Positions 19,418 through 48,244 are shown, counted from the first letter of the stretch. The stretch: DNA of 64,000 nucleotides from Anaerolineales bacterium (GCA_038206515.1 JBBRAT010000001.1:40089-104088); one strand, 5' to 3'. Notes: generated by a model from the sequence alone, not told the origin. A program made the numbers and translations.

Positions 19418-19452
19418 GATGCCCTTTTCGTTTGAGAAGGGCATCTTTTTTT
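19418..19452 (+). terminator. Rho-independent terminator (gatgcccttttc...gaagggcatc + TTTTTTT).
   Basis: Hairpin plus a 7-T run, reaching the convergent thioesterase stop codon. Confidence 0.6.
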
Positions 19453-20206: not shown

Positions 20207-20288
20207 GTTGGCTGCTCCTATGGAGGATGTCTTTGTTTGATGCGCCAAAAAGTTTACCACCTTTTTGGAGTGCGGTAAAATAGAGAGT

Positions 20289-28335: not shown

Positions 28336-29595
28336 TTGCCTCTTGTAACGAATGAACGCAAGTTCTATAATAGAACTATGAACAGTCTTGCAAAGCTAGC
28401 ATCGGTAACGGAGGAAATGAGCCTGGAGGTGGAAGAAACGCCCTCCGCGCCTGATCATTTGCCTGGGCAGACTTCGCCCTCCCCGTTTAGCTTGGCGGGT
28501 ACAGCGGAATGTCCCTCTACAGGCAAAACGCACTCGAAAGAAAGCACCGCAGGGCTGCCAATCAGTATGGTGAGTACCCCTCGAGGTCCCATTCCCATCA
28601 TAAAATCCATGATGACCTCTGCCTGTGAGCGGAATTGTTATTACTGCCCTTTCCGTTCGGGACGGGACTTCCGGCGGATGACGTTTAAGCCAGATGAAAT
28701 GGCGGAAGCGGTGCAGCAGCTCAGTCAGGCAGGGGTGGTGCAGGGGGCGTTCGTCAGCTCTGGGATTGCAGGCGGAGGGGTGCGCACGCAGGATCAACTG
28801 TTAGATATGGCTGAAATCCTGCGGCATAAGTATCAATATCGCGGGTACTTGCATCTGAAGCTCATGCCAGGGGCGGAACAGGATCAGATTTTGCGCGCTA
28901 TGCAGCTGGCGGATCGCGTTTCGGTGAACTTGGAAGCGCCTAATACCCAACGCTTGTTAAGACTTGCGCCGCAAAAAGTGTTTTTGGAGGAGCTTTTACA
29001 ACCCTTGCGCACGGTGGAAGCCATCCGCAAAAGTCAGCCTGGAGCGCGGGGTTGGAAGGGTCGCTGGCCCTCCATGACCACGCAATTTGTGGTGGGCGCG
29101 GCGGGCGAAAATGACCTGGAAGTGCTGCAAACGGTGGATTATTTATACCGAAATTTACGTCTGGCGCGCGCGTACTTCTCTGGGTTTCATCCGGTGGCGC
29201 AAACTCCGCTGGAAGAACTGCCTGCCATTGTCCCCTGGCGGCAACACCGGTTGTATCAGGCTTCTTTCTTGCTGCGTGATTATGGCTTTGGGGTGGAAGA
29301 CTTGCCCTTCGAGGGGGATGGATTGCTGCCGCTCGGCGTTGACCCGAAGCTCGCCTGGGCGCGTAGCAACCTGAACGAAGCACCCATCGAGTTAAACAAA
29401 GCCAGCCGGCAGGACTTGCTCCGCATTCCGGGCATTGGTCCGAAGGGCGCGCAGGTGATTTTCACGTTCTTGCAGGGTGGTGGGCAGTTTAAACGGGTGG
29501 AGGATTTGAAGAACCTGGGGGTTTATAGCACCCGCGCTGCGCCGTTCATCTTGATTGACGGCAAACAAGCGCCTACACAGCTCAGTTTGTTTTAG
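28336..29595 (+). CDS. Radical SAM protein with a C-terminal ComEA-like helix-hairpin-helix DNA-binding motif (putative DNA modification/repair radical SAM family).
   Basis: CxxxCxxC cluster CERNCYYCPF. C-terminal LLRIPGIGPKGAQVI HhH. The N-terminal 90 aa are low-complexity, so the true start may be internal. Confidence 0.75.
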   Translation: MPLVTNERKFYNRTMNSLAKLASVTEEMSLEVEETPSAPDHLPGQTSPSPFSLAGTAECPSTGKTHSKESTAGLPISMVSTPRGPIPIIKSMMTSACERNCYYCPFRSGRDFRRMTFKPDEMAEAVQQLSQAGVVQGAFVSSGIAGGGVRTQDQLLDMAEILRHKYQYRGYLHLKLMPGAEQDQILRAMQLADRVSVNLEAPNTQRLLRLAPQKVFLEELLQPLRTVEAIRKSQPGARGWKGRWPSMTTQFVVGAAGENDLEVLQTVDYLYRNLRLARAYFSGFHPVAQTPLEELPAIVPWRQHRLYQASFLLRDYGFGVEDLPFEGDGLLPLGVDPKLAWARSNLNEAPIELNKASRQDLLRIPGIGPKGAQVIFTFLQGGGQFKRVEDLKNLGVYSTRAAPFILIDGKQAPTQLSLF

Positions 29596-29666
29596 GTTGT
29601 GGGCGTTCATCGCTTTGATTTCCCTATCTTTAACGAGGAAATTACGCCGAAACCGTGCGATATAGC

Positions 29667-29695
29667 TTGACTCCTCTATCACGATTCTTTATAAT
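29667..29695 (+). promoter_or_regulatory. Perfect consensus sigma70 promoter TTGACT-17-TATAAT driving the Hsp70-like operon.
   Basis: Hexamers and 17-nt spacer read directly from the sequence, about 100 nt upstream of the 29799 ATG, in an AT-rich intergenic region. Confidence 0.6.
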
Positions 29696-29798
29696 CTTTT
29701 TAAGATCAGCAATCCCCTTTTACAGAATATAATATTGGGTGGGGGTATATCTTCTTTATTTCCAGCAAGCTTTATTTAATCTTAGGAGATAATCTGTC

Positions 29799-31343
29799 AT
29801 GTCGGCAAATGTCACCGCCGTTGGTATTGATTTAGGCACCACATATTCAGCAGTAGCTATACTGGATGAACATGGGCATCCTGAAATACTTCCGTGTTCT
29901 GAAGGGGAACGTCTGGTCCCTTCGGCCGTTTTCTTCGACAATGACCAGGTGGTTGTCGGGCAAATTGCCAAGGACGCTGCAATCACAGACCCAGATAATG
30001 TTGTGTTATTCATCAAGCGCCAAATGGGAATGGCTGGTTGGCATTATTCTTATCAGGGTCAAAGCCTCACGCCTACAGACATCTCTGCATTCATTCTTAA
30101 AAAACTCAAAAAAGACGCTGAACAGGCATTAGATCACCCTATTACCCATGCGGTTGTTACGGTGCCGGCTTATTTTGATCCTGATCGGCGGCGCGCTACC
30201 CAATCTGCTGCTGAAATTGCGGGTTTCAAGGTTCTCACCCTTCTCAATGAGCCTACAGCCGCCGCAATTGCTTTTGGCGTTGAGCGCGCCACTAAGCCGG
30301 AAACTGTACTGGTTTACGATTTAGGTGGGGGAACTTTTGATGTTACCTTAATGCGCGTTGAGGGCAAAGAAATTACGATCCTGGCGACAGATGGCGACCA
30401 TCAATTGGGTGGGAAAGATTTCGATGATGCACTGATGCGTTTTTGTGTTCAGTGTTTTCGTGAAGAACATGGGTTTGACCCAACAGACGACCCCCATACG
30501 GAACAGATGATTCGGAAAGATGCTGAGAAACTCAAACGAGAGTTAAGCGTCCGCACAAAGACAGCCCTTCGAATAGCAGCGCAGGGGCATGTTAGCCGAA
30601 TTGAGATTGAACGCGAACGATTTGAGAGTTTAATCAAGGTTAAAATTGATATTACCCTGGCATTGGTACGCACATTGCTTCAGGAACAGAAAATGAGGCC
30701 CGAAGTGGTTGATCGCGTATTACTGATCGGCGGTAGTACACGTATCCCTGCAGTTCGTGCAGCACTGCATCAATATTTTGGGAAGCCACCCGATACCTCA
30801 ATTAACCCAGATGAGGCAGTCGCGCATGGCGCAGCTTTGATGGCGGCAAAGAAAATCAACGAGCTTTACCCAGAATCGGTCTCAGAGGCTGTGGCTGTGA
30901 AAACATCTGATCTCATGGTTGCAGATGTGACTTCGCATAGTCTTGGAATTGCAACTGTGCAACCAGGGAATCCACCGCGCAGGTATCATAGCATCCTCAT
31001 TCAACGAAATTCACCCATCCCGGCTGAAAGTTCACGGGATTTTCTGACTTCTGAGGCTGGCGCAACGGTGATCAAAGTGACTGTTTACCGGGGTGAGTCT
31101 ACTAAATTAGAAGATTGTAGCCCAGTAGGGGAATTTACATTGTCTGGGCTGCCCCCAAATCGTCCGCCGGGCAAACGCATTCGCGTTACGGTGGCTTGTG
31201 GGGAAAACGGGTTGGTTCAGGTCTCTGCGATAGATATTGAAACCGGATTACAGGCGCAAACAGAGGTGAGCTACCAGGATGGGCAGAATGCTCATCATGT
31301 ATCAGCGCGTCAACGCTGGATGCAGTCTCAGAAAGTAGAATAA
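29799..31343 (+). CDS. Non-canonical Hsp70-family ATPase (nucleotide-binding domain plus substrate-binding beta domain, no C-terminal helical lid). HscC/YegD-like.
   Basis: Hsp70 signatures IGIDLGTTYSAVA, DLGGGTFDV, LIGGSTRIPAVR. Only 514 aa, ending after the SBD-beta region. Confidence 0.85.
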   Translation: MSANVTAVGIDLGTTYSAVAILDEHGHPEILPCSEGERLVPSAVFFDNDQVVVGQIAKDAAITDPDNVVLFIKRQMGMAGWHYSYQGQSLTPTDISAFILKKLKKDAEQALDHPITHAVVTVPAYFDPDRRRATQSAAEIAGFKVLTLLNEPTAAAIAFGVERATKPETVLVYDLGGGTFDVTLMRVEGKEITILATDGDHQLGGKDFDDALMRFCVQCFREEHGFDPTDDPHTEQMIRKDAEKLKRELSVRTKTALRIAAQGHVSRIEIERERFESLIKVKIDITLALVRTLLQEQKMRPEVVDRVLLIGGSTRIPAVRAALHQYFGKPPDTSINPDEAVAHGAALMAAKKINELYPESVSEAVAVKTSDLMVADVTSHSLGIATVQPGNPPRRYHSILIQRNSPIPAESSRDFLTSEAGATVIKVTVYRGESTKLEDCSPVGEFTLSGLPPNRPPGKRIRVTVACGENGLVQVSAIDIETGLQAQTEVSYQDGQNAHHVSARQRWMQSQKVE

Positions 31344-31367
31344 TTATCTCATTTTAAAGGGGAATCC

Positions 31368-32633
31368 ATGAGTACCAATCGGCATACGCTCCAAAACAGT
31401 GAAATTGTCAAATTCTCAGAGTCGCTCGAAAAAGGACTTCCTATTTTCTTTCTCGAAAAAAAGCTTACCGTTGAGGATGGTTGGGTAGCTGTAATGACGG
31501 TTGGCGGTTCGTATCAAGAAACGCTTGCCGCTGGCACTCATTTTCTAGGGAAATACAAGATTAACCGAGAGCTTAAATCTACTCTGGTTGACATTCGTAT
31601 AAAAACCCTCAACGTTATCACAGACCGCGAGTTTAGCATTTCTCAGCCTGTCCCTGTGGAAGTGAATATTGATCTGGCTGTGGAATATAGGGTCGTAGAT
31701 GCGCGGCGCGTCGCCCTCGAAATGACAACACCGCTTACTAGCCTTTTTGATCGCGTGCTGCAAGCGTTGCGCGATGGCGTGGTAAATGCCACCCTGGATG
31801 AAATCCGCAGGCAGGGGGGCGGTATTGCCCAGGCGGTTCAGCATCATTTGCAGGCGATGAAATTGCCTCAGACTCTTGGGATGGAAGTCTTGAACGTAAT
31901 GACCACGCGGATTAAAGCCACCGATACTGGGGGTGATGCGCTGGCAACACGGCAATTAGAATGGTGGACGAGAATGCAGGATGCCGTGGTTAACGGAAAT
32001 ATTTACCAACATATTAACGTTACTCCCCAATACCTGATGTTGACCCAGCCGGACTTGTACGCCAAGTTAAATGCGGGTCATGTTGAAGTCTTGAAAGAAT
32101 TGATTGACAAGGGAATGCTTGACCCATCCGGGGTCATGAATCAGCCTACCCGATCAACTGGGGGTAACATGATGGACATGACGAACCTGCTTTTGGGTGG
32201 TTTGACGGGAATGGGTATTCAAAACGGTCCTACGCAGCCGACAGGGTATGCTGGTCAACCGTCATCTCCTTCTCCACAGATCACTTCTGGCGGGGCTGGC
32301 GCTTCCTCGGCGAAGGACATCCATGCCCGTATGGAGGAAGAAATTCGCTACCTGGAGCAAGTTCCAGGTGTAAAAGTGGAGGTTTCTCCGGGGGTGAATG
32401 GGCGTGGGATCGCGGATGGGTCCTATAACTTGCGGGTGTCGTTTAAAAGCAGCTCGTATGCTGCGCAATATGTATTGTATATTACCTGCCCACCTGGTTA
32501 TCCACAATCAACGCCTTCTATCGAATTGGCCCAAAATGAAGAGGAAGTCTCTTTTCAGTCAACCGTCTTAAGACGATGGGCTGGGCAGTGGTTGGTAGAG
32601 ATTGTTCGTGAAGTTCGTCAATATTTTAGTTAA
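31368..32633 (+). CDS. SPFH (band-7/prohibitin-like) domain protein with a Gly/Pro/Ser-rich linker and a C-terminal RWD/UBC-like (E2-fold, probably non-catalytic) domain.
   Basis: SPFH-like core (VEDGWVAVMTVGG...HFL...VDIRIKTLNV...IDLAVEYRVVD...TLDEIRRQ). C-terminus EEEIRYLEQV...YVLYITCPPGYPQSTPSIEL...LVEIVREV resembles the RWD/UEV pattern. The RWD call is an inference. Confidence 0.65.
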   Translation: MSTNRHTLQNSEIVKFSESLEKGLPIFFLEKKLTVEDGWVAVMTVGGSYQETLAAGTHFLGKYKINRELKSTLVDIRIKTLNVITDREFSISQPVPVEVNIDLAVEYRVVDARRVALEMTTPLTSLFDRVLQALRDGVVNATLDEIRRQGGGIAQAVQHHLQAMKLPQTLGMEVLNVMTTRIKATDTGGDALATRQLEWWTRMQDAVVNGNIYQHINVTPQYLMLTQPDLYAKLNAGHVEVLKELIDKGMLDPSGVMNQPTRSTGGNMMDMTNLLLGGLTGMGIQNGPTQPTGYAGQPSSPSPQITSGGAGASSAKDIHARMEEEIRYLEQVPGVKVEVSPGVNGRGIADGSYNLRVSFKSSSYAAQYVLYITCPPGYPQSTPSIELAQNEEEVSFQSTVLRRWAGQWLVEIVREVRQYFS

Positions 32634-32642
32634 AGGGGAGAT

Positions 32643-33329
32643 ATGACCAATAATCCGTTTGAACTGTTGAGGGTTGCCCCGGATACCGCTTTCGATGGGC
32701 TTCAGAATGCTTATCAATTGTGCCGCGCAAAGGCGATTGCCGAACAGGCTAACGATGAGACCTTACGAACGATTGATGAAGCATACCGCGCTGCGCTCGA
32801 AAGTTTATCTCAACGACAGGCATCTACCCATTTATCTGTCTTACCTACGCAGGCGGTAGCAGTGTATAACCCGCCCATGCAGCCCAAATCCTCTGCCTAT
32901 AATCCAACTGAGCTGCTCTCGCAGGCGCTTAAAGAACAGGTTAGTCCATCTACTTTTGCAACGATTGATTGCCCAAACTGTGGAATCCCTAACCCTGCTC
33001 AGGTTACCGTTTGTCAGCAATGCGGCAGCCAAATTAGTCGCACTTGCACAGTCTGCGCCGCGCAGATCCCCTTATATGCGTCTGTTTGCCAGCGTTGTGG
33101 CGCGCCGGTGAATGAAGTTGCAAAAAATAAGGCTCTTCAGGCAAATGATGCATCTCAGAAAATTGAACAAGAACGCTTTGAAGAAAATGAGCGTATCCTC
33201 CGCCATGAGCAGCGTCATGCTACGCGCGCTGTTTATGGGACCGTTTTCTGGCTAGTGGTTACTGTTGCCTTAGTAGCCCTTTGCGGATTGGCTTTGTTTG
33301 CGTATTGGTCTGCCTCGCAGTTGAGATGA
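32643..33329 (+). CDS. Membrane-anchored protein with a degenerate J-like N-terminal helical domain, a double zinc ribbon and a C-terminal transmembrane helix.
   Basis: NPFELLRV...AYQLCRAKA (weak J-like). CPNCG...CQQCG and CTVCA...CQRCG ribbons. C-terminal transmembrane helix. Its stop overlaps the next start (ATGA). Confidence 0.55.
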   Translation: MTNNPFELLRVAPDTAFDGLQNAYQLCRAKAIAEQANDETLRTIDEAYRAALESLSQRQASTHLSVLPTQAVAVYNPPMQPKSSAYNPTELLSQALKEQVSPSTFATIDCPNCGIPNPAQVTVCQQCGSQISRTCTVCAAQIPLYASVCQRCGAPVNEVAKNKALQANDASQKIEQERFEENERILRHEQRHATRAVYGTVFWLVVTVALVALCGLALFAYWSASQLR

Positions 33330-34144
33330 CTCAGGAAACAGACTCTCAGTCTCGTTCGGATTTAACGGCTTGCCCCAATTGTGGCAACATGAACCGCCCG
33401 AATGTGCTGATTTGCCCAGCTTGTGGGGTGCGCGTTGACCTCTTTGAGAGCGCCCAAGAAGCCTTGGATGCTAAAAGTCAGGCAGTTCAGGTGCAGCGCC
33501 GGGCGGTATTTGCTGAAACTGCCACCAAAGAGGAAGAGGAAGAGCAGCAAAACGTGCGCCGGAAGCTGTGGCGTTTCTGGCTTCCCATCGTGTTATTGGC
33601 TACAGGCTTGTTAGCTTTACCCATCTGGTTGTTTGCTTCCAATGCCGGCGCCAGTGAGCGGCAGAAGAAAGAAATGCTTCAATCGCTTTTGCTGAAAGCG
33701 GAAGATTGTATCAAAGCACAAGATTTTTCCTGTGCCAGGGATACCTATACTGAACTCATCCAGTTAGACCCACTCAATGAGGTTGCCAGGAAGGGATTAT
33801 GGTCAGCGCAAGTGGGGTTGGCTCGGGATTTGGCAAAGAAAGGGCAAATTGATGGAGCGATTGAGGCGCTAACCCCAGCGCGCAAAGCCACGCCCCAAGA
33901 TGAGGCGTTGATTGACCTGGAAGTATCACTTCGGGGTCAGAAAGCGAATCAGCTCGCGCGTAAAGGGGATTGGCGCGCCGCGATTGATATGCAGTCTGCC
34001 GCATTAGAGCTTAAACCCAATGACTCAGGTGTGCGTAACCAAATTCGCACGTTTTTCGACCAGTGGATTGTTTTTGAACGCGCCAAGGGGAATATTACCC
34101 AGGCGGTGATGTTGCAAATCGAAAAGAAAGCAAGATTCCCATAA
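33326..34144 (+). CDS. Zinc-ribbon / transmembrane / TPR-like repeat protein.
   Basis: CPNCGNMNRPNVLICPACG ribbon, an acidic stretch, a transmembrane helix (WLPIVLLATGLLALPIWLF), then helical TPR-like repeats. Confidence 0.55.
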   Translation: MTQETDSQSRSDLTACPNCGNMNRPNVLICPACGVRVDLFESAQEALDAKSQAVQVQRRAVFAETATKEEEEEQQNVRRKLWRFWLPIVLLATGLLALPIWLFASNAGASERQKKEMLQSLLLKAEDCIKAQDFSCARDTYTELIQLDPLNEVARKGLWSAQVGLARDLAKKGQIDGAIEALTPARKATPQDEALIDLEVSLRGQKANQLARKGDWRAAIDMQSAALELKPNDSGVRNQIRTFFDQWIVFERAKGNITQAVMLQIEKKARFP

Positions 34145-34212
34145 AAATCGGGGAATGACGGAGTTAAACGGAATTTCGCACTATTGTTTAATACGATTAT
34201 GTTTGAGGAGAA

Positions 34213-35172
34213 ATGATTATGGCAAATTATTATGAACTGCTTCAGGTTCCACCGACTTCCAGCCCCCAAGAAATTGAGGTCTCTCTTGATCGCTTATATA
34301 ACGAAACGCGCCGTAAGGTGACTAATTTTGATCCGCAAATTGCAACCCAGGCGAATCAGGCGCTCCAATTGCTGGAGCAAATGCGCTCAATTCTTCTTTC
34401 GCCGGATAAGCGCAATGCTTATGATACGGCCTTGGGGATTGGCGCAAATGCGGGTGGATTGGTAGACCCCGAAGCGATATTCCGTTCCCCCGCTCCTCCT
34501 GCTGGGCCTGTATTAGGCATGCCAACGGTTGGGATGCAATTCGGGCAACCCATGCCCCAATCCCAGGTAGCGCAGCCCGCAGTCCGCACGGATGCGTGGA
34601 CTTGCCCAACCTGTCACCATCCGAACCTTGTGGGGGCGCAATTCTGTGCGAAAGATGGGGTGAAGATTGGTCATCCTTGCCCCAAGTGTGAACAGATGGC
34701 TGAATTGGCAAATAATTTTTGCCCCGCCTGTGGAGCTGACAAACGGAAGGTGTACGAACAAAAACAACAAGCAGAAATTGAGAAATTGCATGTAAGAATC
34801 AATGGCATCAATGCGCAAATAGAACAGATTCGCAAAGTTGCCAGCCTCAGTTCAAGTGGAAGCCTGCGAGGGGCAGATTTGACCGTTTATAAAGAGCTAC
34901 GTCAGGGGAGCAGTTCGGGATGTGCCTGGATGGTCGCGATTATATTATTTATTACCATCTCGGCAGTTTTCACTAGCATGGGGGCTGCTCAAATCTTTTA
35001 TATCCTTTTTGCTCTTGGGATTTCTGCTCTCGTAGGATGGTTCGTCTATTCGAGTGGCAAAAAATCGCATATAGATACTCAGGCAAAAAAGCGCATCAGT
35101 GAGTTGCAAAGCCAGCTTCCTGGGCTTCAACAGCAAATCAGCGAAGTACAGTCGCACCAATACCCCAATTAA
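34213..35172 (+). CDS. J-domain-like protein with HPD replaced by FDP, plus a double zinc ribbon, a coiled coil and two C-terminal transmembrane helices.
   Basis: NYYELLQV...SPQEIEVSLDRLYNETRRKV TNFDPQ ...ALQLLEQMRSILLSPDKRNAYD aligns with the canonical J domain (DYYEILGV...YHPDKN...AYEVLSDPEKRAAYD), with the catalytic HPD lost. CPTCHH...CAKDG and CPKCE...CPACG ribbons. Confidence 0.7.
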   Translation: MIMANYYELLQVPPTSSPQEIEVSLDRLYNETRRKVTNFDPQIATQANQALQLLEQMRSILLSPDKRNAYDTALGIGANAGGLVDPEAIFRSPAPPAGPVLGMPTVGMQFGQPMPQSQVAQPAVRTDAWTCPTCHHPNLVGAQFCAKDGVKIGHPCPKCEQMAELANNFCPACGADKRKVYEQKQQAEIEKLHVRINGINAQIEQIRKVASLSSSGSLRGADLTVYKELRQGSSSGCAWMVAIILFITISAVFTSMGAAQIFYILFALGISALVGWFVYSSGKKSHIDTQAKKRISELQSQLPGLQQQISEVQSHQYPN

Positions 35173-35184
35173 CAGGACAATTCC

Positions 35185-36594
35185 ATGCCCAATTACTATG
35201 AGACCCTCCACGTTATTCCAACTGCAACTGCGCAAGAGATTGAGCCCGTTATCGATCGGTTATATAACGAGACGCGCCGCAAAGTAACCAATTTCGATCC
35301 ACAAGTTGCGGCGCAAGCCAATCAGGCTTTGCTGGTATTGGAACAAATGCGGACGACCTTGCTTAATCCGCAATTGCGCGCTGAATATGATAAAACTTTA
35401 GACTTGAATATGCAGATGGGAGGGCTGCTTGACCCAGACTCTCCTCCGGTAGCTATTCCCTCAGCCTCCTCATTGGGAATGCCTTCTGGTAATATGGCCT
35501 TTGGGTCAATCTCCGCCGGAACATCGCAGGGAAGACAGTCCCCGCAGGTTGCCCCTCAGGGGATCATTGCACCCAAAACAACCTGGACTTGTCCCCAATG
35601 CCATGTTGAAAATCCGCCGCAAACGCTTTTCTGTAAGAGCTGTGGGGGCGAAGTGGGTTTAACTTGCCCTAAATGTCATAAAACCTATGAGGTAGCCACT
35701 ACTCAGTTTTGTTCAAGCTGCGGTAGCCACCTTGCGACTGAGGTACACCGCAAAAGACTTCAGGACCGCCTCTCCCTGGCTGAAAATGATTTACAGACCA
35801 CTCAGGCAACAGATCCAAGACGAGATAACGAACTCAGTCTGTTACGAGCTGCCATTTTGCAGTCTTTTGCCTGGGTAGCTCTCTTGATTGTCTTTCGGTT
35901 GATTGGCATCCCAATCTTAAATGCACTTAGGGTTAGGTTGGATACTACTGATATTTTTGTAGGAAATGGCATGCGCTATGCTGCCCTATGGGGTGGTTTA
36001 GCGGTAGTTACGATTGCTTTTGCCATACTCCTTCGGGCGCGATGGACAGCAGCGTGGGGCGCGCTGTTTGCCGCCTTCCTATGGGGATCAACGAGTCTCT
36101 TTCTCTTTCTGGAAGCCTATTACAATAATTCGTATAGCGATACATCCTATGGCTACTCGGGCTATCGAGATGTACAGCTTGGGGTTGCTGTTCTTCTCTT
36201 GCTCGTTGACCTCGTTTTAGCTGCGCAACCACGCAAATTCGCCAAATCTTTTACGGAATGGATTAACAAGCCAAAAGGAATCGTGACGATTTCGCATGTA
36301 TTTGGCTGGATTTTTGCTTTAATCGTGGCTGCTCAAATGGGGACATGGCTATCTCCGTACTATTTCCGCTTGGGTGATCCGCTCGGCATTTACATGATAA
36401 CTACATTTCTGCACACGGGAATCTATTGTGTATTGGGTGTGATTCTGTTGTGGCAAGGTGTTTTTGGCTTGGGCATTGTGAATAAAGTGAATAATCAGGT
36501 GCGGAATGCCTTGCTTACTCAGACGCAACGCATCAAGGAATTAACGAGTGAGGTAGAAAGCCTGAAACAGGACTTGACGCATATATCGCGCTAA
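35185..36594 (+). CDS. Paralogous J-like (FDP instead of HPD) zinc-ribbon protein with a multi-spanning membrane C-terminal half.
   Basis: NYYETLHV...AQEIEPVIDRLYNETRRKVTNFDPQ...LRAEYD. CPQCH...CKSCGG and CPKCH...CSSCGS ribbons. At least six transmembrane helices. Confidence 0.7.
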   Translation: MPNYYETLHVIPTATAQEIEPVIDRLYNETRRKVTNFDPQVAAQANQALLVLEQMRTTLLNPQLRAEYDKTLDLNMQMGGLLDPDSPPVAIPSASSLGMPSGNMAFGSISAGTSQGRQSPQVAPQGIIAPKTTWTCPQCHVENPPQTLFCKSCGGEVGLTCPKCHKTYEVATTQFCSSCGSHLATEVHRKRLQDRLSLAENDLQTTQATDPRRDNELSLLRAAILQSFAWVALLIVFRLIGIPILNALRVRLDTTDIFVGNGMRYAALWGGLAVVTIAFAILLRARWTAAWGALFAAFLWGSTSLFLFLEAYYNNSYSDTSYGYSGYRDVQLGVAVLLLLVDLVLAAQPRKFAKSFTEWINKPKGIVTISHVFGWIFALIVAAQMGTWLSPYYFRLGDPLGIYMITTFLHTGIYCVLGVILLWQGVFGLGIVNKVNNQVRNALLTQTQRIKELTSEVESLKQDLTHISR

Positions 36595-36596
36595 TA

Positions 36597-39500
36597 GTGG
36601 AGAGGCGAGGCGAAAAATTGGCGAACTTTCAGATTCCCATGCCCTATATCTATATCTCGCCGCGTGTATTGATCCGCGAAGAGGTAGATTTTGATAACGA
36701 TCAAGGCATCCATTATCAAGAGGCAGGTGGGGAGCATGCCATTTGGGCAGCCCGTATCCCATTTTTGCCTGCAATGGTATCTGAGGATTTTACGCGCCTG
36801 GGCGTAAGGCGCATTGGGTTAATCCAGCAGCGACAATTTCGTTTTATTAATGATTTGGCGCGCGCGCGTGAAAGCCGCGCCACTTTTGAATTGCGCTTTA
36901 TCTCAACGCCGAATTCTACCCCCGGACAGCCGAACCTGATTGACGTTGTGTTTCTTGGAAAAGTCTTTAGCAAACGACAGGGTGGCGCGTTACAGCCTGC
37001 AAAAAATTTGTGGGAAAAATTTGTTAGCAATTTCCCTCTTGAAGACCCGTTTGGGTATCCGCTAGAGCCAGTAGAGAACGAAACAGATTTTAGACGTTAC
37101 TACGAACCCATCTCTTTCGAGGGTCTTCATTTAGACAATATGCTTGAAATCCGCAAATTTGAAGAAATGCCGATCCCCTCGATGGCGCCGTTGGGTCGCG
37201 TGGAGCGCAAAGGCGATTATATTGCCCATCCCTTTGTCCCAAGCGAAGACTTTAACCCAATGGGGCGTTTCTTTGTAGCCTTGGCGAGTCAACCGCAAAA
37301 ATGTTATGCGGGGATTTCTATTCGCCCAATCAGAATGTACAATCAAGAAATCCACAATATTAGCTTTATGATCGGGCAGTTTAAAAAGACCGCAACGGAA
37401 GATGACGATGTTACCGAAGAATACATCCGCACGCGCTCGAAGATTGGCATCTATGTATATCGAAAGATCATGCAATCTCGTGAACAGTTGATGACCGTCC
37501 GTGTTCACTTGATTGGAAAAGAGAAAGCGCCACGCGGTTTGGCTGAGGCGTTAGGTTCTGAAATGATGGGCAATGCTGAAAATACCTACCCCACCATGTG
37601 GTCTGCGGCGCAGCCGGTTGATGAACAAGAATTGGCGGCTGCGTTGAATAATCTCCGCTATCTGGAGCAGGATATTTGGGGACACAGCATTGCCCCCCAG
37701 GTACATACTCGGCTGCGCTATCTGGCAACGGCTGAAGAGGCTTACGGCGCTTTTCGATTGCCTGTACCGCCTGAGTCCGGTTTTATGCCGGGAATTTTGG
37801 TTAAGAATGAGCCTTTTGTAGCGCCTGCCGATGAATTAGAGCTGCGTGACCATGCGCGCGCCAATCAGAATGATGAAATGCTTGAGTCGCGTCAATTCGC
37901 TGCCCAGAAAAAGATTGACCTGGGGTACGTTTATCATCGCGGCAAAATTACTCCGGGGCGTTTTACCCTGAATGTCTCTGATCTGACTCGCCATGCGCTG
38001 ATTGCTGGCTCAACTGGGTCAGGCAAGAGTACCACTCTGAAACATATCCTTTCGCAGCTTTGGATTCGTCACCACGTGCCTTTTTTGGTGCTTTACCCAC
38101 TCAATAAAACAGATTACCGCGATCTGTTGGGTTTTGATCAGCTTAAGGATGATCTTTTAATTTTTACTCTTGGAGATGAAAACGTCTCACCTTTTCGCTT
38201 CAATCCCTTTGAAGTTCCTGATGGAGTATTGTTAAAGACGCATTTATCGCGCTTGATGGGTGTGTTTACGACCAGTTTTCATTTAGCAGACCCATTGCCA
38301 ATGGTTTATCGCACTGCCCTTCGCAAGGTCTATCAAGATAAGGGATGGGATACCGTCACCGGCAAAGGTGATCCGAACCGGGAAGCGCCGGTGATGTCAG
38401 AGTTTTTAACGGCGATCCGAACTGTGACCGAGTCTCTCAAATATGGGCGCGAAGTAGGCGATAATGTGCGCCAGGCTTCGGTTATCCGCATCGAAGATCT
38501 GCTCGAAAACACGCGCCACATCCTGAATGTCCGCAGTTCCATGGATATCCGCGTGGTATTGGAAAGACCTACGGTGATGGAATTGGGTCGAATTGGCTCT
38601 ACAGACGATATTACATTGCTGATGGGGTTTTTACTGATGCGATTTGCGGAAGAAGTGGAACGCCACCCTCGCCCGGCTGATTTACCCCATATTACGGTGG
38701 TCGAAGAAGCACATCGCTTAATGGCTGAAAGCTCACCGGTGAACAATGATGCAGGGAATCCACGTGGTTCAGCTGGGGATGATTTTGCCAATATTTTAGC
38801 CGAGGTGCGTGGATATGGCGAAGGAATTTTAATTGCCGAACAAATTCCTACCCTCTTGGTTAAGGGCGCTATTGGTAACACCTACATAAAAATTATGCAC
38901 TGGCTCGAAGATGCGCCCAGCTATAACTTATTTTGTAACATCACAAATTTGAATGAGGTCCAGCGGAATTATGCGCGCACCCTGACCCCCGGCTTTGCGG
39001 TCGTGCGCAGCCCATTTGGTCGCCCAGTACACGTAAAAGTCCCTGAGTTTGGGGATCAACCTGGATATTCCAAACCGGATCAGACTGACTTACAGGATGA
39101 CGCGATTGCAAATTGGATGCAAATGCGGCGATCCAACATGTCGTTAAACGATGTGCCGGTATTACAATCGCAGGCAACCGCCGAGATGAGTACGGTTCAA
39201 ACTGCCCCAGCCATACCCGTTGGACCATGGGCAGTAAATTCAGCGGCTCAAACCTTCATGAATCGCCTTCCTATGCAAACTTGTTTGTTTTGCGTACCTT
39301 TTAATAAAAAACCAGGAGATTGCCCATACGGGATACGAGTAAGAAACCGACTGATCCACGGAACAGAACCAAGTTTTCATCGTGCAGCCAGCGAATCGCT
39401 GGAATTGGCGTTGCGTTCAGCCGATCATCAATCGGTTTGGGTTCAGATAAGTGACTTACGAAGCGAAGTACAAAACCGCATGGTTGGGCTAACCCCGGAA

Positions 39501-39644
39501 CAAATCAATGGCGTGTTGTATTGCTATCTTGCGCATTGGTCGGACGTTTTTGTGCATGATTTGGCAGAGCAGAAGGATGGTACTGCTCTGCGTACCCGTG
39601 TACGCCATATCCTGGCAGAGTTTCTTTCTCATATAGGGTCGTGA
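36597..39644 (+). CDS. HerA/FtsK-superfamily (DUF87/AAA_10-like) P-loop ATPase, 1015 aa, with a C-terminal Cys-cluster domain. GTG start 2 nt after the upstream stop.
   Basis: Walker A IAGSTGSGKSTT. Walker B-like ITVVEEAHRL. HerA/VirB4-like sensor motifs. C-terminal CLFCVPFNKKPGDCPYG. Confidence 0.75.
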   Translation: MERRGEKLANFQIPMPYIYISPRVLIREEVDFDNDQGIHYQEAGGEHAIWAARIPFLPAMVSEDFTRLGVRRIGLIQQRQFRFINDLARARESRATFELRFISTPNSTPGQPNLIDVVFLGKVFSKRQGGALQPAKNLWEKFVSNFPLEDPFGYPLEPVENETDFRRYYEPISFEGLHLDNMLEIRKFEEMPIPSMAPLGRVERKGDYIAHPFVPSEDFNPMGRFFVALASQPQKCYAGISIRPIRMYNQEIHNISFMIGQFKKTATEDDDVTEEYIRTRSKIGIYVYRKIMQSREQLMTVRVHLIGKEKAPRGLAEALGSEMMGNAENTYPTMWSAAQPVDEQELAAALNNLRYLEQDIWGHSIAPQVHTRLRYLATAEEAYGAFRLPVPPESGFMPGILVKNEPFVAPADELELRDHARANQNDEMLESRQFAAQKKIDLGYVYHRGKITPGRFTLNVSDLTRHALIAGSTGSGKSTTLKHILSQLWIRHHVPFLVLYPLNKTDYRDLLGFDQLKDDLLIFTLGDENVSPFRFNPFEVPDGVLLKTHLSRLMGVFTTSFHLADPLPMVYRTALRKVYQDKGWDTVTGKGDPNREAPVMSEFLTAIRTVTESLKYGREVGDNVRQASVIRIEDLLENTRHILNVRSSMDIRVVLERPTVMELGRIGSTDDITLLMGFLLMRFAEEVERHPRPADLPHITVVEEAHRLMAESSPVNNDAGNPRGSAGDDFANILAEVRGYGEGILIAEQIPTLLVKGAIGNTYIKIMHWLEDAPSYNLFCNITNLNEVQRNYARTLTPGFAVVRSPFGRPVHVKVPEFGDQPGYSKPDQTDLQDDAIANWMQMRRSNMSLNDVPVLQSQATAEMSTVQTAPAIPVGPWAVNSAAQTFMNRLPMQTCLFCVPFNKKPGDCPYGIRVRNRLIHGTEPSFHRAASESLELALRSADHQSVWVQISDLRSEVQNRMVGLTPEQINGVLYCYLAHWSDVFVHDLAEQKDGTALRTRVRHILAEFLSHIGS

Positions 39645-39709
39645 GTCAATGGATATTGCCAAAGTAAAAACATATTGTTAGCGCAACTGACGCAAAAGAA
39701 GGAGTCATT

Positions 39710-40072
39710 ATGACAGAAGATATGAACGATCTCCCAGCAGAAGATTCATCTTCAGGTGCATTCGATTATGTAGAACAACCAGACCCCCTCGAAGCTGATT
39801 TTTATGAAACGCCAGATATTCCGGATGAGTCTGGATCAGCATCAGAAGTAACCCCATCTTTTTCTGTGGATCATCCTCAAGATTCCGATAATATTCCTCC
39901 AAAACCACAGGATACTCCAAGCGTTCTTACTCCCCAACCTGAGGATGTGACATATCACCCGCGCACTGGTGGACCAGAAGCTTTGCCGGATGAAGAGGGA
40001 GAGCCACTGGTAGAACCCCATAGCCCTGAAGCGCCTGCTCCATTCCGTGGTAATCCGGAACATGGCGGCTAA
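39710..40072 (+). CDS. Highly acidic, Pro/Asp/Glu-rich, probably disordered protein.
   Basis: RBS AAGGAG. 120 aa with a very strong acidic bias. Lower GC than the window average. Confidence 0.5.
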   Translation: MTEDMNDLPAEDSSSGAFDYVEQPDPLEADFYETPDIPDESGSASEVTPSFSVDHPQDSDNIPPKPQDTPSVLTPQPEDVTYHPRTGGPEALPDEEGEPLVEPHSPEAPAPFRGNPEHGG

Positions 40073-40080
40073 AAGGCGAT

Positions 40081-40659
40081 ATGGATAACCAATTAGAAAC
40101 CCAAGATACGGATGAGGTTGTAGAAACCCCATCAGATTCATCGAATGATTTACAGTCTGAAACACAACTTCAGGAGCAAGAAGGCGTGGCGCGCTTGCGC
40201 GACATGCCTGCGCTTACCCCCGAAGGGTGGGCGCAGCTTGACATAGGTGGTCGGCTTGAGGCTCTCAACAACGTTGAAGCAACCATGGCTGAAATTCAAG
40301 GTCGCCCCAGTGTTCCGGTTGAAACCGCTCCGATGGGAGAAACGACCTTTGGCGGTTATGACGGCAGTCGTATCTTGCTTAATGAAGAGCATCTGAGAAG
40401 AAACGAGTTGCCTGTCCGTGAGTTTGTAGATACGATTGTACATGAAGGGCGGCACGCTTATCAGGATGCGGCGGTGAAGAACCCAGACCTGGCTGGGAAC
40501 GCGCCCGAAGTTCAGGCTTGGGCTGAGAATATGCAAAATTATTTATCTCTTGAACAGTATGGTCAAGAGATATATCAAAGTCAACCGGTTGAAGCAGATG
40601 CCTGGAACTATGCTGCCCAGATTACCAATGGATTGTACGGCTCTGCTGGAAAGGAATAA
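40081..40659 (+). CDS. Protein with an acidic N-terminus and an HExxH motif (IVHEGRHAYQD). Putative minimal zincin-like metallopeptidase domain.
   Basis: HExxH with downstream Glu and Asp residues. No family assignment was possible by eye. Confidence 0.45.
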   Translation: MDNQLETQDTDEVVETPSDSSNDLQSETQLQEQEGVARLRDMPALTPEGWAQLDIGGRLEALNNVEATMAEIQGRPSVPVETAPMGETTFGGYDGSRILLNEEHLRRNELPVREFVDTIVHEGRHAYQDAAVKNPDLAGNAPEVQAWAENMQNYLSLEQYGQEIYQSQPVEADAWNYAAQITNGLYGSAGKE

Positions 40660-40663
40660 GCAA

Positions 40664-40966
40664 TTGACTGACAGATTTGATCCTATTGACCGCCGCCTCA
40701 TGGAAGAATTGAGTTATCCACCTGCTGGGGCAACCTTGATTATTGCTAAACTACGCGGCGCCGCGCCCCTCATTCAAGAGGCGTTCTGGCAGTGGTGGGA
40801 AGATGGGATTCTGCCCGACTTGACTGTTGCTGGCATAACCTTCCAAACTTTGGTTACGGATCATGGCATGAATCCGATAGCCGCCCTGTTGACGATTGAC
40901 TGGCTAATACGTGATCCAAACGCAGCCTTGCGTTCATTGAAGAAGGGTCACGACATTCACAAGTAA
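40664..40966 (+). CDS. Hypothetical protein (TTG start after RBS GGAAAGGA; alternative ATG at 40700).
   Basis: An ORF continuing the operon. No recognisable domain. Confidence 0.35.
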   Translation: MTDRFDPIDRRLMEELSYPPAGATLIIAKLRGAAPLIQEAFWQWWEDGILPDLTVAGITFQTLVTDHGMNPIAALLTIDWLIRDPNAALRSLKKGHDIHK

Positions 40967-40992
40967 TGAATGATTCGCCTGAGTAATTACGT

Positions 40993-41367
40993 ATGGAAAC
41001 GGATTCCTGGCAGATGGGGTTTATTGACGAACCGATAGAGGTGCACTTCTACCGCCCTCCCATGCTATCCAAAACGCCACCTTGCCCGGATGCATTCACC
41101 TGGCGGGAGGAGCTTTTTGCTGTTGCCGAAATGCTTGCTGAATGGGTGGATTTTCGGCGGCGCGGGCGCGCTGCGCGGAATATGCAACCTGGGCATTTGG
41201 CTTCGGCGGCGCGGCGTGGGTCTTGGGGAGTGGGGCGGTTTTATTTCCGCGTGCGCACGGAAGGGGGGCGCGTGTTTGAGTTGTATTTTGATCGCACCCC
41301 TGGCAATGCAGATGACCGCGCCGGTCATTGGGTATTGTTTGGTGAGCGTAAGCAAATTATTTCATAA
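40993..41367 (+). CDS. Hypothetical Arg-rich protein.
   Basis: 124-aa ORF, no recognisable domain. Followed by an AT-rich intergenic region. Confidence 0.4.
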   Translation: METDSWQMGFIDEPIEVHFYRPPMLSKTPPCPDAFTWREELFAVAEMLAEWVDFRRRGRAARNMQPGHLASAARRGSWGVGRFYFRVRTEGGRVFELYFDRTPGNADDRAGHWVLFGERKQIIS

Positions 41368-41533
41368 TAATTTATTTACGTATTATTAATTCTTAAATTA
41401 ACTCGTTTTTTACTCACAAATATTTTATTTGCGTTATCCTTTGGGTACATTCTTTACGATAGATCAGCCTCGATTGTGGAGGAAATTGACAATCCACATT
41501 CGACCTAATGAAAACTCAAAGGAGAGAGTAGCT

Positions 41534-41923
41534 ATGCATCACATTACGCCAAATGCTGCAAAAAACCGCCTATATTTGATTTTCGATGGAAAAATAGATG
41601 CCGCTGAAGCCAAGGCGATCAAAGATGAGGTTTCACGCGCTTTAAAGAGTTTAAAGTCAGGATTTTGCGTTGTGACCGATTTGACCAAACTAAGTCCGCT
41701 TGCCGAAGATGCGCGCACCATCATCCAGGATTCGATGACTGAATGCCATAAAAAGGGCATGAAGCTGGTGATCCGCCTGGTGGGGGATGCGGTCGTGACG
41801 GGCAATCAGTTCCAACGCACGTCACGCGCTGCTGGCTATACCGCCTCGGAGGCGCTGAGTGTTGCAGAAGCGGATAAGGCGATTACGTATCACTTGATGG
41901 GGTATTCAAAGGTTGCCGCCTAA
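41534..41923 (+). CDS. STAS-like (anti-sigma-factor-antagonist-like) small protein.
   Basis: RBS GGAGAGAG. Pattern LYLIFDGKIDAAEAKAI...GFCVVTDLTKLSPL resembles the STAS/SpoIIAA fold. Low certainty. Confidence 0.45.
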   Translation: MHHITPNAAKNRLYLIFDGKIDAAEAKAIKDEVSRALKSLKSGFCVVTDLTKLSPLAEDARTIIQDSMTECHKKGMKLVIRLVGDAVVTGNQFQRTSRAAGYTASEALSVAEADKAITYHLMGYSKVAA

Positions 41924-42108
41924 CGCTGCTCCCAGAGCAGAGTAGGTTTATAGGTGTTTTATTCGTAGAAGAATGCGTTTTAGTGGTAATGGAACCGGGC
42001 AAGCAATTGTCCGGTTTTTGATTCTTTCGGGCAAACTCAAAGAAACTTGAAAATTTAACACGCAATCTCAATATTCCACATAGATTATAAATATATTCAA
42101 TTTGCCTA

Positions 42109-42136
42109 TTGACAAAATTAAATATTGAGCTATGAT
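42109..42136 (+). promoter_or_regulatory. Near-consensus sigma70 promoter TTGACA-16-TATGAT with an approximately 190-nt leader before the 42329 ORF.
   Basis: Hexamers read from the sequence, in an AT-rich region. Confidence 0.45.
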
Positions 42137-42328
42137 TAGTTTAGAAAAGAGAAGAGAGCGCGAGAAATCTAAAGAGCGATCTTTTCTCACCCAATTCATC
42201 CACCCTTTTCAGCGCACCCCAGAGGTTTAGCGGGCGGTTTGTATCATTTGCTTGGCGTTGCCAGGCAGTGCAGCTTTGCTATGCCGAAATGACTGAAAGC
42301 GGAGTTTACCCAAAAGGAGAAAACAGCG

Positions 42329-42769
42329 ATGGCATCCCAAGAAGAACGAATGCGTATTTTGAACATGTTGCAGGAAGGCACGGTCAGCCCGGAGCAGGCG
42401 GCGCAACTATTGCAAGCGATTGATGACACGCCCAGTGCGAAGCGTGGCGCGGCGCGTGAAGTACCTCCCACACCGGCTCCGGCGGCAACCCCAAGCATCA
42501 ACTTCCCCCCGGCTGGTGAACCTGGTCAGCCGCCGCGCTGGCTGCGGGTACGTGTTTCATCTATGGAAACTGGTCGCCCCAAGGTGAATATCCGCCTGCC
42601 CATCAGCCTGGTAGGAGTAGGGTTGAAGATGGGCAAGCACTTTGCCCCCGAAATGGAAGGGATTGATGTGAATGAATTGCTCGAAGCGATTCAATCCGGC
42701 GAATCCGGCACGTTTGTTGACGTGACCGATGAAAATGACGGCGAACACGTTGAAATCTTCTTGGAGTGA
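42329..42769 (+). CDS. Small protein with an N-terminal SHOCT-like motif (RMRILNMLQEGTVSPEQAAQLLQAI) and an acidic C-terminus.
   Basis: RBS AAGGAG. The motif is typical of short SHOCT/DUF-type N-termini in Firmicutes and Chloroflexi. Function unknown. Confidence 0.5.
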   Translation: MASQEERMRILNMLQEGTVSPEQAAQLLQAIDDTPSAKRGAAREVPPTPAPAATPSINFPPAGEPGQPPRWLRVRVSSMETGRPKVNIRLPISLVGVGLKMGKHFAPEMEGIDVNELLEAIQSGESGTFVDVTDENDGEHVEIFLE

Positions 42770-46121: not shown

Positions 46122-46151
46122 CTTGCCTACTTTCTCAATCTCTTCATTTTG

Positions 46152-46230
46152 ATTCTGTGTGGATTGTAGTGGTTAAGAGAGGCGATCTTCCCTTCTTAAC
46201 CACTACAATCCACACAGAATCCTCTTTATT
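46152..46230 (+). terminator. Rho-independent terminator: perfect 26-bp stem (attctgtgtggattgtagtggttaag) with a 17-nt loop and a following T-rich tract.
   Basis: Exact inverted repeat immediately after the regulator stop. Shares the 9-mer ttgtagtgg/ccactacaa with elements A and B. Confidence 0.6.
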
Positions 46231-46283
46231 TTGGCAAAGGTTTGGCAATGGTATTTGTTATGGTAATTGCAGCGGAGAAGACA

Positions 46284-46502
46284 ATGCGATTTACCAAAAC
46301 ATTTCTTTTGCATCTCTACATGGATTCAGACGCACCGGAAAGGATATGCGGTGATTTGCGTCCGCTGGAGGATTCGGAGCGTTATTCATTTAAGGACTTT
46401 AAAGAATTACAGGAGTTGATACGTGATTTTGTTAAGAAAGCCCTTTTGTCATCCTGTGCGGCAGTAGAAATTTCTACAGATACAGAGATTAAGCATTCTT
46501 AA
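46284..46502 (+). CDS. Small hypothetical protein (72 aa).
   Basis: ATG preceded by GGAGAAG. Ends 13 nt before the RBS of the RCC1 gene. No domain recognised. Confidence 0.3.
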   Translation: MRFTKTFLLHLYMDSDAPERICGDLRPLEDSERYSFKDFKELQELIRDFVKKALLSSCAAVEISTDTEIKHS

Positions 46503-46515
46503 AGAGGAGGAGAGA

Positions 46516-48117: not shown

Positions 48118-48244
48118 AGGTTCACTGCGAATTGGCGTGGAAATTCGCAGTGAACCTAAATAAGTGGGCATAATGTTTTGAAAATTGTGTCGCTGTTAAG
48201 CGGTTTGGTGTTATGAAGACGAGAATGGGTAGTGAATCGCTTTT

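Follow-up and report, generated by a model that had tools for sequence, protein, structure and literature searches.

A conserved gene cluster of Anaerolineae combining a lid-less Hsp70, an SPFH-RWD protein, J-derived membrane proteins, a motor ATPase and a minimal zincin: a candidate accessory conflict system

The 64-kb stretch of an Anaerolineales genome analyzed here (GCA_038206515.1, JBBRAT010000001.1:40089-104088), which is termed the window and along which all coordinates are counted, harbors a plus-strand cluster of about ten genes (g1 to g10, Table 1) whose composition and order recur in other genomes. The cluster encodes a lid-less member of the Hsp70 family (g1), a protein that joins SPFH and RWD-like domains (g2), four zinc-ribbon membrane proteins (g3 to g6), a large P-loop ATPase (g7) and, behind a variable small open reading frame (ORF; g8), a minimal zincin (g9) and a small conserved protein (g10). 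We tentatively predict, with somewhat less than even confidence, that these genes constitute an accessory, horizontally mobile multi-protein system that acts in biological conflict against phages or other mobile elements. An earlier note, made from the sequence of the same stretch, had described the first seven genes as a possible membrane-associated chaperone/ATPase machine, perhaps a conflict system, that matches no recognized system. On this last point it has been borne out, because PADLOC yields partial matches to HerA and mad8 families and neither PADLOC nor full-text literature searches return a description of this gene set.

Results

Conservation of the cluster and exchange of its modules

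Species representatives of GTDB were scanned with an alignment of the ATPase, yielding 61 loci (designated here by L numbers), and tblastn, clustering and hidden Markov model searches were then applied. In the Anaerolineae the genes follow the order Hsp70, SPFH-RWD, double zinc ribbon protein (DZR), zinc-ribbon/TPR protein, a variable number of proteins with a J-derived domain and a double zinc ribbon (J-DZR), ATPase, variable ORF, g9 and g10. Ten or more genomes of Anaerolineae and Chlorohelix share this order, the Chlorohelix version being rearranged, and its recurrence in many species-level genomes indicates that the cluster is more than a product of chance; a failure of the genes to co-occur outside this genome, which the earlier note had named as grounds against its reading, is thereby contradicted. 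The Hsp70 gene is kept in the operon at L003, L005, L006, L009, L011, L012 and L015-L017, and the Hsp70 of this operon is in every case a lid-less form of approximately 515 residues. The genes that flank the cluster are unrelated between loci, L003 is flanked by transposases and an integrase sits within the L005 operon. Most of the hosts belong to filamentous or multicellular groups of prokaryotes. The L005 insertion (6024-7034) encodes an rve-family integrase with an HTH_38 domain and stands beside a tandem of three J-DZR genes whose N-termini are identical, an arrangement that suggests recent duplication or rearrangement.

In a rough neighbor-joining tree of the ATPase, the clade associated with Hsp70 and J-derived genes adjoins two other clades. 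The operons of the first one (Oscillochloris, Chloroploca and two Anaerolineae; L018-L020 and L027) are composed of RWD, E2, JAB, E1, SPFH-RWD and ATPase genes, and the E2, JAB and E1 products of L020 match PADLOC families of the cyclic oligonucleotide-based antiphage signaling system (CBASS) at 2e-21, 4e-15 and 3e-39, respectively. More than one protein of these E1/E2/JAB operons contains an RWD domain, several doing so in all, and no CD-NTase or known CBASS effector was detected among the sister-locus neighbors scanned. The second clade presents two weak-SPFH paralogues after the ATPase, and a Syntrophales locus (L053) carries JAB, E2, DZR, E1 and ATPase genes. Hsp70-like genes also appear beside distant relatives of the ATPase in L049, L067 and, more weakly, L051 (Alkanindiges), where a weak Hsp70 match lies three genes downstream of the ATPase and a WYL regulator lies upstream. 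Taken together, the sequences point to a shared logic in which a motor ATPase, a peptidase and membrane zinc-ribbon proteins, usually accompanied by SPFH-RWD, would be combined with a swappable regulatory arm.

Several observations on the wider ATPase family can be added. In L049 (1619-12849, an Actinomycetes metagenome-assembled genome) the ATPase is followed by a divergent Hsp70-like protein of 683 residues, a WD40 protein and a BTAD-AAA16-TPR STAND nucleoside triphosphatase (NTPase). Distant cyanobacterial relatives of the ATPase (L036, L038, L041, L045 and L050) lie behind genes for an FHA protein, a 90-residue protein and a small TPR protein, and their loci include two proteins joining a kinase-like fragment to a Pilin_GH-like domain; this set looks like a separate, likewise undescribed system. 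Directly after the L005 operon (14149-20482, Anaerolineaceae GCA_053578135.1) we found genes for a GntR-ThiF E1, Prok-RING_1, a YukD-UQ_con E2 fusion, a free YukD, JAB, FHA and VWA. This ubiquitin-like set was considered as a functional partner and rejected as a mere neighbor, since it is repeated at no other locus.

The motor ATPase

The core of g7 (aa ~440-850) contains a P-loop of the DndH/VirB4/HerA type, with Walker A GSTGSGKS at 471-478 and Walker B VVEEAH. The RecA-like P-loop, the Walker A and the hhhhEEAH-type Walker B place it in the FtsK/HerA/VirB4 superfamily. It is preceded by a rare alpha/beta N-domain (aa ~15-430), and on its other side a disordered linker leads to a C-domain (aa 882-1013) that is entirely helical and contains four conserved cysteines (Cys896, Cys899, Cys909 and Cys976). 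The N-domain alone, searched against 1.84 billion representatives, matches only 174 clusters, in some of which it stands alone and in others of which it lies inside proteins of 1400-1500 residues. Structural comparison of the core with solved structures gave scores of 23.7 for HerA, 21.8 for TrwB, 17-19 for defense HerAs, 16 for EccC and 15 for FtsK, and the closest solved cores include the defense motors DndH, TdpA, HerA-DUF and Nezha HerA. The description of g7 as a HerA/FtsK-like ATPase with a C-terminal Cys cluster can be retained as to superfamily and cysteines, but the protein lies nearer to DndH and VirB4 than to FtsK. It is not HerA sensu stricto, since it reaches 17-20 bits against a cut-off of 800 with the NCBIfam HerA models and Pfam scans of the neighboring genes reveal no NurA, the nuclease partner of that repair helicase. 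No transmembrane (TM) or FHA region was found in g7 by TM and Pfam scans, and PADLOC returned partial matches only (mad8, 1.3e-10; HerA, 1.4e-9), with no matches for partner genes. The alternative TTG start of g7 lies behind a Shine-Dalgarno-like GGAGAGG and is used by the public 1008-residue product; translation may begin there instead of at the GTG.

The peptidase and its neighbors

According to tblastn and hmmsearch, the genes g9 and g10, which lie beyond the seven genes of the earlier note, are kept behind the ATPase gene in 12-13 loci, and they also follow it on two divergent contigs (L067 and L068) that have different upstream genes. Sequences of g9 match no Pfam or NCBIfam family. The invariant HExxH...QPxExD signature, which supplies a putative third ligand, and a structure model with a predicted local distance difference test value of 91, whose fold neighbors are the minimal zincins selecase, jannalysin, SPRTN, Wss1, CapP and IrrE, identify g9 as a zincin metallopeptidase. 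In other loci the place of g9 is held by unrelated peptidases, namely a C39/C70 papain-like one in L007 (14098-15048) and a DUF6782/Tox-MPTase4/M78-like one in L060 (6246-7025). The peptidase slot thus appears to be conserved in function and not in homology. The product of g10 has no match in Pfam (even at E up to 1), PDB or PADLOC, and gives no helix-turn-helix (HTH) signal. No Pfam or PADLOC match was obtained for g8 either, and tblastn did not find it in other loci, where non-homologous small ORFs occupy the variable gap between ATPase and peptidase; in place of a separate small ORF, the loci L011, L012 and L014 have a peptidase ORF that is extended by a long stretch at its N-terminus. Kinship among the small post-ATPase proteins of different clades (g10, F10, F18, F23, F27, F29, F50, F51 and others) was tried and rejected, the best hhalign probability being 17%.

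The SPFH-RWD protein

The combination of an SPFH domain with an RWD/UBC-like C-terminus that had been read from g2 is supported by both halves of the protein. The SPFH domain matches Pfam Band_7 (PF01145) at 1.5e-8, and a profile of the g2 family searched against PDB finds HflK at 1.2e-12, followed by stomatin, QmcA and prohibitin. The C-terminus reaches 21.2 bits with Pfam RWD (3.4e-4), slightly below the cut-off of 22.8, and a stand-alone RWD homologue in L020 matches the same family at 1e-5. The top PDB matches of the C-terminal profile are nearly all of the UBC fold (FANCL URD at 1.3e-4, E2, UEV, Vps37A, BRE and RWD). This domain has a YPxxxP flap and no catalytic cysteine, the family consensus after YPxxPP being xxxVExxGxxxxFxSxxLRxW, without the conserved Cys or HPN of an active E2, and it can be regarded as an inactive E2/RWD-like domain. 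No TM or hydrophobic segment that might serve as a membrane anchor was detected by TM scan in g2 or in any SPFH-RWD homologue; short stand-alone RWD proteins that cluster with the family do carry a hydrophobic segment. Many SPFH-RWD proteins of L005, L009, L012 and L015-L018 end in glycine (..SG, ..VG, ..YG, ..WG), and g2 ends in ..YFS. The idea that the terminal glycine marks SPFH-RWD as a conjugated species was dropped, as this residue is inconsistent in the E1/E2/JAB clade.

The J-derived membrane proteins

The products of g3, g5 and g6 follow a common plan, in which a J-derived domain at the N-terminus is combined with a double zinc ribbon and with TM segments that number from one to approximately six. 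The zinc ribbons and TM segments attributed to these membrane proteins in the earlier note are indeed present. In g3, Pfam DZR is matched at 5e-9 and the protein, which groups with J-DZR family F1, is predicted to be tail-anchored; a TM scan suggests the same topology for several other J-DZR proteins. g5 matches DZR at 1.5e-7 and Pfam DnaJ (PF00226) at 2e-4, below the gathering threshold, and g6 is its paralogue, with 62% identity across the J-like region. g4, which matches Zn_ribbon_3 (6e-6), TPR_14 and TPR_2, belongs to a family (F8) conserved in eight loci. Between loci, J-DZR-TM paralogues number from one to at least eight and their C-terminal membrane parts vary, a typical trait of sensor or effector components that undergo diversification.

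A profile of 24 J-derived sequences, searched against PDB, matched 59 sequences, nearly all of them J domains and a few de novo designed, the best match (E=1.7e-12) spanning profile positions 2-70 and hence the whole domain. This makes a solid case, at the level of profile similarity, for regarding the J-like regions as true J-domain homologues, and speaks against the doubt, voiced together with the original assignment, that they might not have the J fold. The catalytic HPD (His-Pro-Asp) motif has indeed been lost in g5 and g6, but the aligned residues are N-F-D and not the FDP given earlier, which was off by one position, and most relatives have H-H-D. HPD is retained only in one long paralogue (L007_3463), and L008_3050 has HPN.

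The lid-less Hsp70

Pfam HSP70 (PF00012) is matched by g1 at E=2.5e-132 over profile positions 1-510 of 599, and its alignment to Geobacillus DnaK (2v7y) extends over residues 8-497 only, through the beta subdomain of the substrate-binding domain (SBD-beta), stopping at DnaK residue 477 and leaving a tail of 17 residues and no helical lid. The same alignment reveals intact ATPase motifs (GIDLGTT, DLGGGTFD and GGSTRIP), which represent the phosphate-1, phosphate-2 and adenosine motifs of an actin-like nucleotide-binding domain (NBD). Pfam and the DnaK alignment thus agree with the architecture proposed at the outset, of an NBD and SBD-beta without a lid. All scores fall below the NCBIfam equivalog cut-offs (410/648 bits for PRK00290, 403/822 for TIGR02350 and 377/708 for HscA) and, together with the invariably lid-less form inside this operon, argue that g1 is not merely the organism's DnaK, as the earlier note had allowed. 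No grpE or canonical dnaJ adjoins g1 according to Pfam scans of the neighbors. Residue R167 has a generally known role in DnaK, and covariation of its equivalent with the variant at the HPD position was sought among the relatives and rejected, the residues found (T, Q, K, N, C) following no pattern.

Layout of the locus

All seven plus-strand ORFs that the earlier note had listed are present between 29799 and 39644. The intergenic gaps from g1 to g7 (24, 9, -4, 68, 12 and 2 nt, in order) span the range it had given, including the ATGA overlap between the g3 stop and the g4 ATG and the GTG 2 nt after a stop. Three further plus-strand ORFs follow g7 with gaps of 65, 8 and 4 nt. Since g9 and g10 are conserved beside the ATPase in other genomes, the unit extends past 39644, reaches approximately 40966 and comprises about ten genes instead of seven, with the peptidase among those that had been overlooked.

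Table 1. Genes and promoter-like site of the cluster, with positions along the window
Feature	Position	Strand	Description
Promoter-like site	29667..29695	+	TTGACT-17 nt-TATAAT; ~100 nt upstream of g1
g1	29799..31343	+	Hsp70, 514 aa; NBD and SBD-beta, without alpha-helical lid
g2	31368..32633	+	SPFH/band-7 aa 34-192; Gly/Pro/Ser-rich linker; UBC/RWD-like aa ~317-421
g3	32643..33329	+	N-terminus J-like but degenerate; DZR aa 107-158; one TM segment at the C-terminus (aa 193-225)
g4	33326..34144	+	Zinc ribbon aa 14-36, one TM, TPR repeats; no J domain
g5	34213..35172	+	J-derived aa 5-71 (NFD for HPD); double zinc ribbon aa 131-174; coiled coil; ~2 TM
g6	35185..36594	+	J-derived domain (NFD); double zinc ribbon aa 136-183; ~6 TM; C-terminal coiled coil
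g7	36597..39644	+	1015-aa ATPase; GTG 36597 start, alternative TTG 36618
g8	39710..40072	+	120 aa, acidic, Pro-rich, apparently disordered; good Shine-Dalgarno sequence
g9	40081..40659	+	192-aa minimal zincin metallopeptidase; invariant H121-E-G-R-H125, Q168-P-x-E171-x-D173
g10	40664..40966	+	~100 aa, conserved; start TTG 40664 or ATG 40700; always after g9

The promoter-like site upstream of g1, initially described as a perfect consensus, matches it at 11 of 12 positions. It is the joint best site in a promoter scan of 29000-42500, a region in which promoter-like matches overall show no excess over shuffle expectation, and its role as a promoter is plausible but not proven. No convincing terminator-like site was found by scanning within the cluster, the best hairpin lying at 41991-42018. 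The operon has a GC content of 0.489, against 0.54 and 0.514 for the flanks, and no tRNA or Rfam features were found in the window.

On the same strand after g10 (40993-41923), and before the hairpin at 41991-42018, lie two genes that are not conserved with the cluster elsewhere; one encodes a DUF6504 protein (1.3e-31), the other a protein with a weak STAS domain. Farther away, a stretch of low GC content (46000-50000, ~0.455 against ~0.53 around it) holds an RCC1-repeat protein (46516-48117) and, on the opposite strand, a GAF-domain protein (48245-49219).

Discussion

A candidate accessory conflict system

The composition of the cluster suggests a working model in which g7 would act as a hexameric motor of the DndH/VirB4/HerA type at the core of a larger assembly, with the SPFH-RWD protein g2 forming a ring-shaped scaffold near the membrane. 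The membrane proteins g3 to g6, diversified paralogues present in variable number, would anchor this assembly and serve as its sensors or clients, and their J-derived N-termini would keep the dedicated lid-less Hsp70 at the site. Given the decay of HPD to NFD, these domains might tether or gate the Hsp70, and not stimulate it strongly. The Hsp70/J-like arm would provide regulation or sensing, a task that the CBASS-type E1/E2/JAB arm may take over in the sister operons. Upon an as yet hypothetical trigger, g7 would perform mechanical work on DNA or a polypeptide, and the small zincin g9 would act, together with g10, as the processing or effector output.

Several features lead us to favor a role in biological conflict. 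The distribution of the cluster is rare and patchy, its flanks are unrelated between loci, it is associated with mobile elements and its GC content is below that of its surroundings. Moreover, its J-DZR genes have undergone paralogue expansion, its functional slots are refilled by non-homologous parts, and the closest solved ATPase cores include several defense motors. Hsp70-like genes turn up again beside distant relatives of the ATPase, in L049 together with a STAND NTPase. In addition, sister operons carry, in place of the Hsp70/J genes, a CBASS-type E1/E2/JAB module, and such modules regulate an immune enzyme and have an exclusively immune pedigree (PMC10097602). The hosts are, moreover, mostly filamentous or multicellular prokaryotes, as they are for a set of conflict systems predicted earlier (PMC7159879), and DnaJ and bNACHT25 are reported to provide a precedent for the sensing of phages through a chaperone (PMC12169576).

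A number of points weigh in the opposite direction. The case is built on sequence and genomic context; the system is missing from PADLOC 2.0, in which g8, g9 and g10 match no defense family. No classical toxic effector (nuclease, Sir2, TIR or pore former) was identified in the window, where the neighbors of the cluster are housekeeping genes and form no recognizable defense island, and a scan of viral contigs revealed no relatives of the ATPase. The His-less NFD domains may not engage Hsp70 at all, and the residue of g1 equivalent to DnaK R167 is Thr and varies among relatives. VirB4, a co-top structural neighbor of g7, fits secretion too, and the combination of SPFH, Hsp70/J, peptidase and ATPase would equally fit a membrane-proteostasis machine. 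The initial proposal of a membrane chaperone/ATPase machine that might be a conflict system therefore comes out amended: its conflict option gains support from the E1/E2/JAB exchanges, the patchiness, the flanks and the GC content, whereas it had missed the peptidase, and its HPD reading and ATPase class have been corrected.

A bolder version of the conflict reading, possible in our view but decidedly speculative, is that the cluster represents a new class of machine, in which a lid-less Hsp70 held on J-derived, non-HPD anchors would be interchangeable with E1/E2/JAB, both regulating an SPFH-RWD/motor/peptidase core. The complex might then be, with the same marked reservation, a chaperone-gated immune or surveillance machine at the membrane, and a bacterial counterpart of the triage logic that links Hsp70, ubiquitin and hexameric ATPases in eukaryotes.

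Alternative explanations

A machine for the quality control or extraction of membrane proteins, similar to HflK/C-FtsH or to the eukaryotic erlin, Hsp70-J, ubiquitin and p97 pathway of endoplasmic reticulum-associated degradation, is an unlikely but serious alternative. Clients would be confined by the SPFH ring, to which the J-like anchors would recruit Hsp70, and membrane proteins would be extracted or unfolded by the ATPase and degraded by the zincin; the E1/E2/JAB arm of the sister operons would tag the clients. The relationship of g2 to scaffolds of membrane proteases, the tail-anchored topology predicted for g3 and several other J-DZR proteins, the constant presence of a peptidase and the ATPase motifs and SBD-beta retained by the Hsp70 are all congruent with this explanation, and so is the presence of Wss1 and SPRTN, which are reported to act with Cdc48/p97, among the structural neighbors of g9. 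Yet a proteostasis function would not be expected to show such a rare and patchy distribution, unrelated flanks, transposases and an integrase, nor so wide a variation in the number of J-like paralogues. The E1/E2/JAB versions are, furthermore, specifically of the CBASS type, the ATPase is an FtsK/HerA/VirB4-class motor and not an AAA+ unfoldase, and g2 has no TM anchor.

Equally improbable, in our estimation, is an apparatus of filamentous bacteria for secretion or cell-to-cell transfer, resembling type IV or type VII secretion systems (T4SS, T7SS), in which the VirB4-like ATPase would power the export or dislocation of g3 to g6, g8 or DNA, with Hsp70 keeping substrates unfolded and the peptidase processing them. 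The FHA, kinase-like and pilin-like partners of the cyanobacterial relatives recall EssC and EssB of the T7SSb, a variable small-ORF slot follows the ATPase, hosts are mostly filamentous taxa, and the L007 peptidase is of the C39 type, known to process exported peptides. Relatives of the ATPase also occur on plasmids of Streptomyces, Rhodococcus and Priestia, one of them near a replication-relaxation gene, but they share just the ATPase core, at 32-37% identity, and their neighbors are uninformative. Against this alternative, g7 has no TM or FHA region, none of the Pfam families matched in the window is that of a channel, pilin, relaxase, coupling protein or WXG100 protein, and J-like/Hsp70 and E1/E2/JAB modules are not known to play a role in secretion systems.

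Finally, the explanation that there is no dedicated system, and that an ordinary DnaK and its co-chaperones lie by chance beside unrelated membrane and ATPase genes, is close to excluded: the view covers the 64-kb window and a second, canonical dnaK would lie beyond it, but g1 scores far below the DnaK cut-offs, lacks the lid and has no adjacent grpE or canonical dnaJ, the same lid-less form is tied to the same partners in many genomes, and Hsp70-like genes recur near distant members of the ATPase family.

Implications

If the conflict reading is correct, the cluster enlarges the known set of accessory and conflict systems of prokaryotes by a conserved and wholly uncharacterized one made up of many proteins; of such systems almost none have been studied experimentally in the Chloroflexota. 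The substitution of Hsp70/J-like and CBASS-type E1/E2/JAB modules on one core would constitute a natural experiment and would make it possible to test whether chaperone cycles and ubiquitin-like conjugation are equivalent in setting the threshold of a dangerous machine. It would also bear on the origin of the cooperation between Hsp70, ubiquitin, SPFH proteins and hexameric ATPases in eukaryotic membrane proteostasis, and natural HHD or NFD J domains paired with a lid-less Hsp70 would offer a system in which to study the J domain without its canonical trigger.

Comparison with known systems

The specialized Hsp70 HscC of E. coli works with the membrane J-proteins DjlB and DjlC. The cluster resembles this arrangement in that the Hsp70 gene is followed, in the same operon, by genes for proteins with J-derived N-termini and C-terminal TM segments (g3, g5 and g6). 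It differs in the loss of HPD from the J domains of the window, in the double zinc ribbons that accompany them and in the complete absence of a lid from the Hsp70, and the pair is embedded among an SPFH-RWD protein, a motor ATPase of about 1000 residues and a peptidase. With respect to SPFH cages, which form 11- to 26-mer rings that organize membrane proteases, the SPFH domain of g2 is homologous to those of HflK/C (the partner of FtsH), QmcA, stomatin and prohibitin; unlike them, g2 has no TM anchor and bears a tethered RWD/UBC-like domain, and no FtsH or NfeD partner accompanies it.

The defense HerA ATPases form the comparison set for g7, and comprise DndH/DptH (7es4), TdpAB (8wet), HerA-DUF (9c1m), the Sir2-HerA system Nezha (8j4u) and, through PADLOC, mad8 of MADS. 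Their partners (Sir2, the DUF4297 nuclease, DndF/G and TdpB) are absent beside g7, which differs from them also in its unique N-domain of approximately 400 residues and its helical four-Cys C-domain, and is accompanied instead by membrane proteins, an SPFH protein, a chaperone and a peptidase. As for the secretion ATPases VirB4, TrwB and EccC, no other T4SS or T7SS component was detected in the window. The known minimal zincins to be compared with g9 are the minigluzincins selecase and jannalysin, the SprT/Wss1/SPRTN group and ImmA/IrrE/CapP. It differs in that its sequence matches no Pfam or NCBIfam family and in that it lacks an HTH partner of the ImmR, CapH or DdrO type.

The likeness to type II CBASS, with its Cap2 (E1-E2) and Cap3 (JAB) (PMC10097602; bioRxiv 10.1101/2022.03.31.486616), lies in the E2, JAB and E1 genes of the sister operons and in the inactive E2/RWD-like domain that g2 keeps. 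Genes for E1, E2 and JAB are absent from the window, and the Hsp70 and J-like proteins hold that place.

Conflict systems containing Hsp70 have been predicted before, in the form of the GTPase-tubulin-HSP70 systems (PMC7159879) and of type III CoCoNuT, which includes the Hsp70-like CnuD proteins and an EccE3-like domain fused to a VirB4-like ATPase together with a small helical protein (PMC11090510). Those systems lack the SPFH-RWD protein, the J-derived zinc-ribbon membrane proteins and the g9 zincin, and the window lacks any McrBC, GTPase or tubulin component. In common with them, the cluster places an Hsp70-family protein in an NTPase-centered, multi-gene system of patchy distribution and with a bias toward multicellular hosts. 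Type III CoCoNuT shares with it, in addition, a VirB4-like ATPase with an extra N-domain paired with a small helical protein, and the EccE3-VirB4-like cassette may, judging from its description, be related to g7. The cluster can be viewed as an undescribed gene set that belongs to a kind already known, the NTPase-centered multi-gene accessory systems.

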